This document shows, piece after piece, positions 8,951 to 12,700 of a stretch of DNA of 64,000 nucleotides (the first letter of the stretch is position 1; each line of letters begins with the position of its first letter). The notes under the pieces are model-generated. The model was not told the origin of the DNA, did not search any database, and worked only from the letters and a program-made list of their open reading frames with translations. A program made the translations under genes and the position numbers. The stretch comes from Escherichia phage Pu-Krd-SF6: the sequence record PQ759886; one strand, 5' to 3'.

Positions 8951-9724
8951 TTATACTCTTGGACCATATATTGCTCCAACGTTTTGCCATGTCGGTGTAG
9001 ACCCTATGACGGCATAACCAGCAGCACCACCGTTATATTCTGTACCGTTCCCATGAATATTACATCTACCTCCTGCTGAGCCAACTTCACCGCCATTCCC
9101 GCCTGTATATACCCAAAGAGACCCCTCACCAGCAGATCCTGCACCCGGAGCGGAAATGGAGCCAGCAGTTGCACCAGAACTCATATGAGAGGAAGACCCG
9201 CCAGCACCGAATGGGCGACCACCACCACCACCAAATGATAGTCTACCGTAGTTACCGCCGCCGCCGCCGCCGCCACCGCCTGCAATAGCTCCGCCATTAT
9301 TAATTCTTAGTCTCCCACCAATATCATTTTGAATACAATGACCCCCAGCTGAGCCAGGACTATTGCTACCGCCATTACCGCCACGTCCATACATCGTTAC
9401 GCCGTGTATATTCAACTGAACATATTCATTCGGTGTATCTCCGTACATGAAGAATAAAGGAACATCTTTAGAATATGATACTAAATCTCCAGTGATATTA
9501 AACACTATAGGTGCACTACCTGCCTCAAAACATCTATCTCGGAACCATTGACCATTGAAGTTATGGTCTGCTCCAAGCGTGTGAATTATTTCAACAGATC
9601 TACCTATCATATTACTCATCCAAAACGGAATTCCCATTCTCAATCTCTGCGCGGCACCACCCATCCAATTTTGTCCTGTATTAACTACTGCAGACGATCC
9701 TACCCACGGTCCTGTTACTGCCAT
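8951..9724 (-). CDS. 38: T2-type receptor-recognising adhesin gp38
   Basis: Glycine-rich blocks ([23 protein letters not shown]) separating variable segments; start set at MAVTG preceded by GGAGG (ORF track starts 4 codons earlier). Confidence 0.85.
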
Positions 9725-9736
9725 ATAAACCTCCAA

Positions 9737-9750
9737 GGGGCCGAAGCCCC
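9737..9750 (-). terminator. tetraloop hairpin between genes 37 and 38
   Basis: GGGGCTTCGGCCCC on transcript strand. Confidence 0.5.
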
Positions 9751-9755
9751 TCTTA

Positions 9756-12700
9756 TTATTTTAACAATGATTTAACTAATGCTTTAAGTTCTTCAATTTC
9801 TGATTTAAGTTCAGCAATTTCTGCAGTATGCTCATTGATTGCAGCTGTATTTAAACCAATTACACCGTTATAGTTCAAACGAAGTAAAGCTTCACCATCC
9901 GGGTCGCCTTCAACTAACTCTGGTAAAATAGCTTGAACTTCTTGAGCAATTAAACCGGCGTTAGGTTCCCATTTCTGATTGCCTTCTTCGTCCGTTCCAC
10001 GTTTCTGCATATAAGTGTAACCGTTAATTTTAGAAAGCTTCTCAGAAGCATTTTCAAATTTAACAAGGTCTTTTTTAACACGAATATCAGAACGGACATA
10101 AACATCACGAACAAAGGTAGAATAGGCATCACCCTGTTGGACTAGATGACCATGAGAAACAATAGCTTTACCGACTTCTGTCCAAAACGACCCGTATGAA
10201 TCCCATAACCCCTCATGTGCCAGACGTTGAGACCCCCATGACGCAATATGAACACCATCGGCAACCATATTGATTCGCCCATCACCGCCATGAACTAATC
10301 CGGTATCATTATCACCAATAACAAGACATGGTCCAGTCCACGCCGGGTTACCACCGCCAGCTGATATTCTTACTCCAGCTTTAACCATGTCAGGAACGTA
10401 CATGTTTCCATTATGGTGGAATTCGAAGATAGCTTGTGGGTCGGAACCGTTTTCCTGATTACCTACACGAATAATACCTTGTGCCCAGTTATTAGGAATG
10501 CGACGCATACCAAAATCAACGCCAGATACGTATCCTTCATTCGTAATAACAGATTTTCCTTTGATAATTGGATAATAACTATCATTACCGACACTACCAA
10601 AATCCACAAATATAGGAGCTTCTTGACGCCATTGGTTACCCCAGTCACCAGCCTGGTGTGCGGTCCAGACTGACCCATTTATATAAATTCGATCCCTATT
10701 AAAATTAAAAGTGGCAGACCCTTCCGGGTTTAAAGCAATATCACCACCATTATTAACATGTATGCCTGATCTATTTTGGAAACTATAAAACGATATGGCA
10801 TTATCAGCCCCACCATTACCTACATACCAGTTATCAACGCCTGCTTTTTGTCCTTTCAAATAGCCAGATTCGGTTGCGGCACTGTTAATAACAATAGCAT
10901 CCGAGTTTGCATTAAGAGTTAAGCGGCCTGTCATCGTATCACCTTCTTTAGCAACACGAGTCGCAATAGCGTCACGGATATTAGTTACGTCGCCTGCTGA
11001 AGTAAATGTTCTCCAGATGTCAGACCAGATGTTACCATTGCGAGCAATAGTAGCTTCACCGCCACCGACCTGAACGTTATCAGGGAAGTTAACAGTACCG
11101 TCTTGATTAAAACGAGACGTATGGCCTTGTGATCCATCTTCTTTCAGATGATGAATAACGAATGTACCCGAATTAATTTCAGTACCTAAAGACCAAACTG
11201 CTTTACCGTTTAAAAACTTCTGCTTAACAATAGGATAATATTTACTTACAGCATCATCATCGATTTCCTGGAAAATAGGAGCCGCTTGAACATATTGAAT
11301 ATCATAACCACCAGCGCCTGCGCCATGACCAGCAAATTTAATATAACCGTTAGCAGCGAACGTATTGTAACTTGATTGTAAATCTGGAATAGTAACTTTA
11401 CCGGTATCTAAAGCCATACTAAACGGGCGAAGTGGACCGATATCGCCGTGTTTACCTTCACCATAAGCAGTTGGAATAATATGAAGACTTCCTTCTGAAC
11501 GTCTAAAAATGGCTCCATAATCTGCATTCCAAATACGAAGTGCATTCACCGCCCCAGATGAAATTTCGCCTGGTGTGTGAACTCCTCTATGTCCAGCAGT
11601 AACACCAGATGATTCAAATGAACCGTTAACGTTCATTTCTACTTCACCTGTTGTAAGTCTTTGAATATAGCTCATCCAACTAGTTGCATCAGAAATTTCC
11701 ATGACGTTTTTACGATTACCTACACTAGGATTAGTAAACGTATTACCCCATACAGAAATTGTCATATTATCAACTGAACTAGCTCCGGTCGTGTTACCTC
11801 TAAATAGCAGGGTAGAAGAATTATTTATACCATCAATATTAACCGAACCACCGATAACATTAATATCACCTGGAGTAACTAATAAACCACCGTGAGTATT
11901 AATGTTTGTAGTACCTTTACCGCGGAAATAGTGATGATAATTACCGCCTTGGTAATATCCTAAAAGAGTCTGACCGTCTCCAAACGCGTTATTATCGTGG
12001 TATGTCACTACAGTAGCAAGAGCATAGTTTTCAGTTGGAGGAGTAGTTAAATCGGCTCCGTTGGTAGAATATCCAGCTACAAATTTTCTTAGGCTAGTTG
12101 TTTCGTTGGGACTAAATAAAAACGTTTTTGTTCCATTATTAACGCTAAAATAATATCCGTCCTGATGCCATTTTAACCCAGTGTCATTATCACCAAGAGC
12201 AATTGAGGCCGTTCCTAATTCAGAATATCCTTTTGGACCGCCTGGGGTACCTATAGAAATAGAATGTCCCGCTTTCAATCCACCTGACCATGTAAACGAC
12301 CAAAGATAAGTGTCTAAGCCATCTCCAGTATACCAAGTTATTCCATCATTATCTTTAACTTCATGGAAAATGCCAGAACCGACTGCATTACGCATGACAC
12401 GAAGATGATTAATAGCAGTAGTGCTTTCAGATAATGGGGTGTTATTTGCTAATGAATAGATATCATAATCTCCTGCCTTCTTCCCGTTTGTAATAACTTT
12501 GTCGGTCAGAATTTGTGGAGACGAAATAGATTTATGTGCTGATACTTCAGGTGAAATAAATAGGCCACTGCCTGAAAATGCATAAATGCTTTCGCTACCA
12601 GCAGCGTAGTCTTGAACCCTGATATTAAGTACTTGTGTAGTTAAACCATCATTAGCCGGGGCATAAATGATTCCACGTTCGCGACTATTATTATCGAAAA

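Follow-up and report, generated by a model that had tools for sequence, protein, structure and literature searches.

What kind of tip does the long tail fiber of Escherichia phage Pu-Krd-SF6 carry, and which host receptor would that tip recognize? The question arises at genes 37 and 38, which lie within a 64,000-nucleotide (nt) stretch of this genome (sequence record PQ759886), referred to as a whole as the window. In the open reading frame (ORF) map, genes 35-36-37-38-holin t follow one another in this order on the minus strand between positions 8264 and 14910, with gene 38 lying between gene 37, which it follows directly, and the holin gene t further downstream; the annotated order 37-38-t is the same in phages Pu-Krd-SF7, F25, T2, and Ac3. 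A preliminary description of the sequence had seen in this locus a T2-type host-range module set in a T4-syntenic backbone, with a receptor that probably differs from that of T4. The analysis presented here indicates that the locus very probably encodes the standard two-protein receptor-binding tip of a long tail fiber of the T2/T6/S16 type.

By homology to S16, T2, IME340, FL12, and EV240, such a tip would form and work in the following way. The distal subunit gp37 (1103 residues) would trimerize with the aid of its own C-terminal intramolecular chaperone of 111 residues, which would then cleave itself from gp37 between R992 and S993. One copy of gp38 (257 residues) would dock on the freed end of the trimer through its N-terminal helical domain, with W7, W20, and W35 serving as prongs, and would be present in the virion as a receptor-binding monomer that caps gp37. 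Its hypervariable loops, projecting from a polyglycine-II sandwich of glycine-rich motifs, would bind an outer-membrane protein of the host. No evidence that contradicts this architecture was found.

The gp38 protein is an adhesin of the T2/T6/S16 type and not a chaperone of the T4 type. It matches the Pfam family GP38 (PF05268) over all 218 profile positions (E value 1e-69, 235.1 bits against a cut-off of 25), Pfam Gp38_N (PF21721) over residues 5 to 44 of the long ORF (1.4e-21, 76.7 bits, cut-off 25), and PHROG 2056, "tail fiber protein; host specificity" (1.5e-106). Its matches among PDB sequences are PP01 gp38 (9V85, 1.6e-79) and S16 gp38 (6F45_D, 6e-55), the latter aligned end to end (residues 1 to 254 with residues 1 to 246 of the S16 chain). 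Entry 9V85 is the receptor-binding domain of PP01 gp38, which binds OmpC (PMC12892980); a reading of this entry as T2 gp38 was rejected. The preliminary description rightly called T4 gp38 a shorter chaperone. It has 183 residues and no real similarity to gp38 of the window, the best BLASTP alignment between the two being 12 residues long with an E value of 1.8.

The ORF listing had gene 38 as 8951..9736 on the minus strand, beginning at a TTG four codons upstream of an ATG. The true start is that ATG (9724). It follows the sequence GGAGG at a distance of 5 nt, and the annotated relatives start there too. The glycine-rich blocks noticed earlier are all present in the resulting protein: a 14-residue block (residues 115 to 128), a run of exactly nine glycines (residues 149 to 157), and an 11-residue block (residues 166 to 176). 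Glycine accounts for 25% of gp38 overall and for 33% of residues 120 to 257, and because gp38 is glycine-rich, the GC content over this region rises to a local peak of 0.50, compared with 0.30 to 0.37 in the flanks.

An AlphaFold2 (AF2) model of gp38, built from 30 homologues, has a mean predicted local distance difference test score (pLDDT) of 84 and exceeds 90 over residues 50 to 257. A fold search of this model against the PDB retrieved 9V85_C (template modeling score 0.89, root-mean-square deviation 2.0 Å) and 6F45_D, and no other PDB fold below an E value of 3. The model is consistent with a fold of three domains: an N-terminal attachment domain, a β helix, and a C-terminal polyglycine-II sandwich. 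The N-terminal 42 residues are modeled poorly (pLDDT below 50), as expected without gp37, and the support for the N-terminal domain comes from the sequence, not from the model. W7, W20, and W35 align with tryptophans of S16 gp38, which insert into pockets on the S16 gp37 trimer (PMC6851490). In 30 gp38 homologues W7 and W20 are invariant, and the third position is mostly tryptophan, with tyrosine in JSE.

The three domains have different relatives. The attachment domain (residues 1 to 45) is 100% identical to those of FL08, KMB40, and 4E10, and 84% identical to that of the nearest genome, Escherichia phage Pu-Krd-SF7 (PQ759887; piglet faeces, Russia), hereafter SF7. The β-helix domain (residues 46 to 112) is 92.5 to 100% identical to those of most Tequatrovirus adhesins, with T6 lower at 85%. 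In the binding domain (residues 113 to 257), an alignment with 15 adhesins shows the glycine blocks to be conserved and the loops between them to be variable. On these comparisons, gp38 is a three-part mosaic, composed of an attachment domain of the FL08/KMB40/4E10 kind, a common Tequatrovirus β helix, and a binding domain of the IME340/SF7/F25 type.

The partner of gp38 in the tip, gp37, contains the Pfam domains Gp34_trimer, gp37_trimer, and Peptidase_S74, and is 97.1% identical to SF7 gp37. As the preliminary description had stated, this protein of 1103 residues lacks the His-rich tip of T4 gp37: a single HxH motif occurs in the whole of gp37 (HGH, residues 972 to 974), versus seven in the last 200 residues of T4 gp37. 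The BLASTP alignment with T4 gp37 covers only residues 1 to 640, at 34.5% identity, and the T4 gp37 needle-tip chain is absent among the PDB sequence matches of gp37. The C terminus is the chaperone-like segment that had been suspected there. Peptidase_S74 (PF13884, "chaperone of endosialidase") matches residues 993 to 1052 (9.8e-13, 48.6 bits against a cut-off of 22), and the last 190 residues (914 to 1103) align with the crystal fragment of S16 gp37, 6F45_A (1.3e-43). The 11-residue segment by which the chaperone was first recognized begins at residue 991 (nt 10097), which fits the position of 10100 given for it. Judged by their scores, the Pfam-supported features of gp38 and gp37 are not due to chance. 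The chaperone segment also matches the C termini of many unrelated fiber PHROGs; the endosialidase-type chaperone of PF13884 is a C-terminal, self-cleaving trimerization domain, whose passenger in the window is a T-even fiber shaft and not an endosialidase.

The C-terminal 113 residues of S16 gp37 form an intramolecular chaperone, auto-cleaved at DLNVS^SDRRIKK (PMC7917993). Because the sequence DVYVR^SDIRVKK of gp37 aligns with this site, a cut is predicted between R992 and S993, which would release a chaperone of 111 residues and expose the docking face for gp38. The cleavage motif is found at the equivalent position, 111 to 117 residues from the C terminus, in 13 of 15 adhesin-type gp37 proteins; T2 and FL12 gp37 carry a variant, YIRSDIRLKS, that lies outside the motif search pattern. 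The S16 gp37-gp38 tip (PDB 6F45; Dunne et al. 2018) has the same two-protein architecture as the window, with the same tryptophan prongs, layout of glycine-rich motifs and hypervariable segments (HVSs), and cleavage motif. It differs in its binding domain (about 51% identical), its receptor (Salmonella OmpC), the genus of the phage, and the mature gp37 tip before the cut, which is unlike that of the window.

A gene order like that of T4 (34-35-36-37-38-t), within T4-like flanks, is what a T4-type organization would also present, one in which gp37 bears the receptor-binding needle and gp38 is an assembly chaperone absent from the virion. The sequence comparisons, however, have refuted it already, and its probability is negligible. 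Neither of the two signs of it named in the preliminary description, a gp38 that aligns with the T4 chaperone and a His-rich gp37 tip, was found. Rather, gp38 matches adhesin families and structures, and gp37, which has no needle-tip match in the PDB, carries the Peptidase_S74 domain that T4 gp37 lacks.

The tip of the T2/T6/S16 type thus favored by gp37 and gp38 lies in DNA that is sharply set off from T4. A blastn comparison with T4 finds 91% identity from 19000 to 12901 and 97% from 8945 to 7141, and nothing between. The cassette between them borders on the conserved gp37 N terminus on one side and on the gene 38/t junction on the other. The genomic position is the same in T4, the flanking genes are 91 to 98% identical, and the first 55 or so residues of gp37 are common to both phages, whereas the C-terminal 460 or so residues of gp37 and the whole of gp38 are unrelated between them, and T4 gp37 itself binds OmpC/lipopolysaccharide (LPS). 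This pattern supports the idea that, relative to T4, positions 8946 to 12900 are a non-homologous replacement between conserved flanks, and the earlier proposal of an exchanged distal fiber module holds in this sense.

The DNA of the cassette has no homology to T2 either, the breaks in this case lying at 12835 and 9031. T2 and T6 resemble the window in architecture and gene order, and their gp37 is processed by proteolysis, as is predicted for the window (PMC3157838). The proteins of T2 are distant, however: T2 gp38 is 47% identical to gp38 of the window over residues 1 to 45, 41% over residues 46 to 112, and 52% over residues 113 to 257, and T2 gp37 is 34% and 29% identical over two aligned stretches. 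The T2 receptors are FadL and OmpF; T6, whose receptor is Tsx, has a gp38 binding domain about 79% identical to that of the window. Therefore, the term T2-type, apt for the architecture, does not extend to the alleles, which are not T2's own: on these identities the cassette is T2-type by architecture and not by allele. The other half of the earlier phrase, a T2-type module in a T4-syntenic backbone, describes an arrangement that is real but not unusual. Searches with tblastn find adhesin-type gp38 in 894 phage records and T4-type chaperone gp38 in 297, 207 of which are at least 60% identical. The adhesin type has been described as the majority form of gp38 in T-even phages, with T4 as the exception (PMC3157838, Trojet et al. 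2011; PMC6851490, Dunne and Leiman). Therefore, a T4 backbone with a T2-type tip is the usual state and does not represent an unusual import.

Which receptor would this adhesin bind? The specificity of gp38 is set by its C-terminal hypervariable segments (PMC3157838; PMC12032242; gp38 swaps in bioRxiv 10.64898/2026.04.02.716166). Over residues 113 to 257, gp38 of the window is 100% identical to gp38 of SF7 and F25. Next is IME340, which binds OmpA (97.2%, with 4 substitutions in 145 residues, all in HVS3), followed by FL12 and EV240 (92.4%) and FL18 and FL20 (85 to 87%), all with OmpA as receptor. Lower identities are seen with T6 and FL23 (79%; Tsx), M1 (67%; OmpA), FL08 (53%; OmpA type 1), T2 (52%; FadL/OmpF), and S16 (51%; OmpC). 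For IME340, deletion and complementation experiments together with adsorption assays have shown the use of OmpA (PMC6499177); FL12, FL18, and FL20 are the "type 2" OmpA adhesins of Lutz et al. 2025 (PMC12032242); and transplantation of EV240 gp38 turned a Tsx phage into an OmpA phage (bioRxiv 10.64898/2026.04.02.716166). The hypervariable segments of gp38 cluster with these experimentally typed OmpA type 2 adhesins. Because the binding domain is nearly identical to those of the IME340, FL12, and EV240 adhesins, whose use of OmpA was shown by experiment, the primary receptor is predicted to be OmpA, with gp38 as a member of the type 2 group. This assignment is likely, and it bears out the earlier suggestion of a receptor different from the OmpC/LPS of T4.

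Several points weigh against parts of this picture. The receptor call is its weaker step. A single change in a gp38 loop can switch the porin that is bound, such as Q206L, which shifts binding from OmpF to OmpW (bioRxiv 10.64898/2026.04.02.716166), and from the window to IME340 there are four differences within HVS3 (S to G, S to A, S to T, and A to V). Some related adhesins, those of PST and RB32, require more than one receptor (PMC3157838). In gp37, autocleavage at R992/S993 is read purely from the alignment to S16.

An alternative that keeps the architecture and changes the receptor deserves attention for these reasons: the primary receptor might be Tsx, as for the sister adhesin group, or a different porin, or two receptors might be needed, for example OmpA and the LPS core. 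After the OmpA type 2 adhesins, the Tsx binders T6 and FL23 come nearest in the binding domain, and Lutz et al. argue that type 2 OmpA adhesins arose recently from Tsx binders (PMC12032242); a switch by one residue is possible, and phages with multiple receptors exist. Yet HVS2 and HVS4 of the window are identical to those of the OmpA binder IME340 and clearly unlike the Tsx type (YYSPF..QMRLTF, and a 4-residue deletion in HVS3), and all five experimentally typed adhesins that are at least 85% identical bind OmpA. A primary receptor other than OmpA is unlikely on this evidence.

Phages with an OmpA type 2 binding domain differ from the window in the sub-type of the gp38 attachment domain and of the gp37 partner. 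IME340, FL12, FL18, FL20, and EV240 have the short HVS2 (N[Y/R]G[R/K]L[S/V/I]F) and the HVS3 and HVS4 patterns in common with it and are 85 to 97% identical over residues 113 to 257. Over residues 1 to 45, however, gp38 of IME340, EV240, FL12, and FL20 is only 49 to 60% identical to that of the window, with FL18 closer at 87%, and gp37 of IME340 and EV240 has a different chaperone-domain allele (YIR^SDRRLKI, 117 residues). Since the attachment domain and the gp37 sub-type differ, the same binding domain is mounted on a different fiber in the window than in the OmpA type 2 phages. The phage vB_Eco_F25 (OP870144) is nearer: its gp38 is 98.1% identical overall, and its gp37 is more diverged, at 52 to 97.5% per 200-base pair (bp) window. 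As a separate observation, gp38 binding loops close to the type of the window occur in the Krischvirus phages FL20 (L008 449-1228) and JSE (P0064); the N-terminal and β-helix domains of JSE gp38 are unrelated to those of the window (40 to 56% identity). In these phages the gp38 gene lies far from gene 37, displaced by about 55 kb (bioRxiv 10.64898/2026.04.02.716166), and it illustrates the shuffling of binding domains across genera.

At a finer scale, the locus differs from that of SF7 by a patch within the tip genes. When the 64,000 bases of the window are compared with SF7, all 164 differences fall within 9344 to 11067, and beyond them there is one 2-bp indel; the last 14 kb of the window are 100% identical. 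(The indel is a GT insertion at 2295-2296 relative to SF7, between the SF7 coding sequences 1882-2145 and 2386-2499.) The patch spans the distal shaft and tip of gp37, the intramolecular chaperone, and gp38's N-terminal attachment domain, and ends before the binding loops. Among the codons that differ, 32 are nonsynonymous and 77 synonymous in gp37 (residues 686 to 1096), and 9 and 11, respectively, in gp38 (residues 4 to 71), so that SF7 differs from the window by 32 amino acid changes in gp37 and 9 in gp38. Residues 72 to 257 of gp38 are identical, leaving the receptor-binding loops unchanged. Of the 32 changes in gp37, 17 fall in the tip, residues 907 to 992, and the closest match of positions 10101 to 10300, within the tip, is Salmonella phage Manna (84 to 94%). 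Manna, which has WGNRRLAHEG..., is also the nearest match of gp37 residues 945 to 960 (10188-10235), where most relatives have WGAGYQSHPG; exact and degenerate-codon scans of IMG/VR and the JGI metagenomes did not find the 16-residue tip peptide of the window.

No single donor of the patch emerged from a megablast of positions 9301 to 11100, whose best record is 92% identical. The best match per 100-bp window alternates among FL08, FL23, KMB40, Ac3, 4E10, EPIMRB01, and Manna, an exact 60-mer scan of IMG/VR for the patch returned nothing, and the exact gp38 and gp37 sequences are not on record in a large assembly collection. The simplest reading is that the patch reflects one recent event of homologous recombination with an unsampled donor that was itself already mosaic. 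The idea that it transferred a co-adapted pair, a gp37 tip together with a matching gp38 attachment domain, is not supported, as these alleles do not co-vary among close relatives: two N-terminal sub-types of gp38, one of them beginning MAVEGPWVGWS..., share the same gp37 tip allele (4E10 and KMB40 versus SF7 and FL23). For a more distant pair, T2 gp37 and PP01 gp38, incompatibility has been documented (PMC12892980).

Could the patch instead be an assembly chimera, produced from a mixed lysate of two related phages, and not a natural recombinant? Flanks identical to SF7 (100% over 62 kb) around a patch that is 9.5% divergent would be expected of such an artifact, sibling isolates of one source exist (Pu-Krd-SF1, 2, 5, and 7), and no record exists of either exact protein, gp37 or gp38. 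However, the patch leaves both reading frames intact, synonymous codon changes are in excess (88 versus 41 nonsynonymous), similar short-segment mosaicism is seen in all deposited relatives, and recombination at the fiber locus is documented (PMC3157838). A chimera is thus quite improbable, and the genes themselves would be genuine even if the assembly were chimeric. If the patch is natural, a more far-reaching proposal is that the window and SF7 form a natural near-isogenic pair in which the tip regions without receptor contact have an effect on host specificity that does not depend on the loops; this is conceivable, though rather doubtful.

The coordinates of the features are collected in Table 1. 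A late-promoter-like sequence, TATAAATA, is present upstream of gene 36 (13763-13756), with further copies upstream of gene 34 (18830-18823) and within gene 37 (11829-11822). In the interval 8900-13100, the motif TATAAATA was not found directly upstream of gene 38, and a late promoter of its own was accordingly rejected for this gene. Therefore, gene 38 is probably co-transcribed with genes 36 and 37. Scans of the locus for σ70 promoters and terminators gave background levels only; the hairpin in the spacer between genes 37 and 38 was flagged by the terminator scan as a stem-loop on the opposite strand. Hairpins of the C(UUCG)G type were first described in T4 intercistronic regions. A second one lies in the spacer of genes 35 and 36 (13770-13791, minus strand) and is followed by TATAAATA at 13763-13756. 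Elsewhere, the SF7 sequence, identical there to the window, has several annotated genes of the homing-endonuclease or intron-like kind, at 21054-21686, 25656-26393, 30520-31329, and 55582-58399 in SF7 numbering, to which about 2 is added for the window. Unrelated to the fiber module, they are found within or close to td, nrdB, and a DNA helicase gene that is split.

Table 1. Features of the distal tail fiber locus of Pu-Krd-SF6 (window coordinates)
Feature	Coordinates	Strand	Basis
Holin gene t, directly downstream of gene 38; begins the T4-homologous right flank	8264..8920	-	Pfam Phage_holin_T, 1.9e-117; 98.5% identical to T4
Cassette lacking DNA homology to T4: gp37 from about residue 56 to the end, and all of gp38	8946..12900	-	blastn against T4; sliding identity profile
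Gene 38, receptor-recognizing adhesin gp38, 257 residues	8951..9724	-	Stop 8951-8953, ATG at 9724; Pfam, PHROG, PDB, and AF2 matches
gp38 C-terminal receptor-binding domain (predicted), residues 113-257: glycine-rich motifs alternating with hypervariable loops	8954..9388	-	Motif positions; alignment with receptor-typed adhesins
Recombinant patch (putative) relative to SF7	9344..11067	-	164 differences, about 9.5% divergence; full-length comparison
gp38 central β-helix domain, residues 46-112	9389..9589	-	Alignment with S16/PP01 structures; AF2 β strands, pLDDT about 90
gp38 N-terminal attachment domain, residues 1-45, predicted to dock on the gp37 trimer	9590..9724	-	Gp38_N match; W7, W20, W35
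Shine-Dalgarno sequence GGAGG of gene 38	9730..9734	-	Read from the sequence
C(UUCG)G tetraloop hairpin in the 31-nt spacer of genes 37/38, just before the gene 38 ribosome-binding site	9736..9751	-	RNA fold, -17.8 kcal/mol, z=-2.4
Gene 37, distal long-tail-fiber subunit gp37, 1103-residue precursor	9756..13067	-	ORF list; PHROG 1699, E=0 over residues 1-1102
gp37 C-terminal intramolecular chaperone (predicted), residues 993-1103, 111 residues	9759..10091	-	Peptidase_S74; alignment with S16 gp37
Distal tip of mature gp37 (predicted), residues 907-992, most variable part of the patch	10092..10349	-	Alignment of gp37 C termini
Gene 36, upstream of gene 37, in the T4-homologous left flank	13076..13732	-	Pfam Phage_T4_gp36, 1.5e-28

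Textbooks have described the arrangement with gp38 as the adhesin since the 1980s, and it is known from crystal structures. The system found here is known in its mechanism, in its structure, and from nearly identical deposited genomes, and only the particular combination of alleles is new. The near-isogenic pair formed with SF7 could serve to test the influence of the gp37 tip and the gp38 N terminus on adsorption: if the two phages differ in host range or adsorption, the gp37 tip allele, the chaperone, and the gp38 attachment domain would be implicated in specificity, the loops being identical. The practical value lies in annotation and host prediction, with gp38 as the adhesin and OmpA as the probable primary receptor, and the prediction of OmpA would be useful for the design of phage cocktails and for anticipating resistance through loss of ompA.

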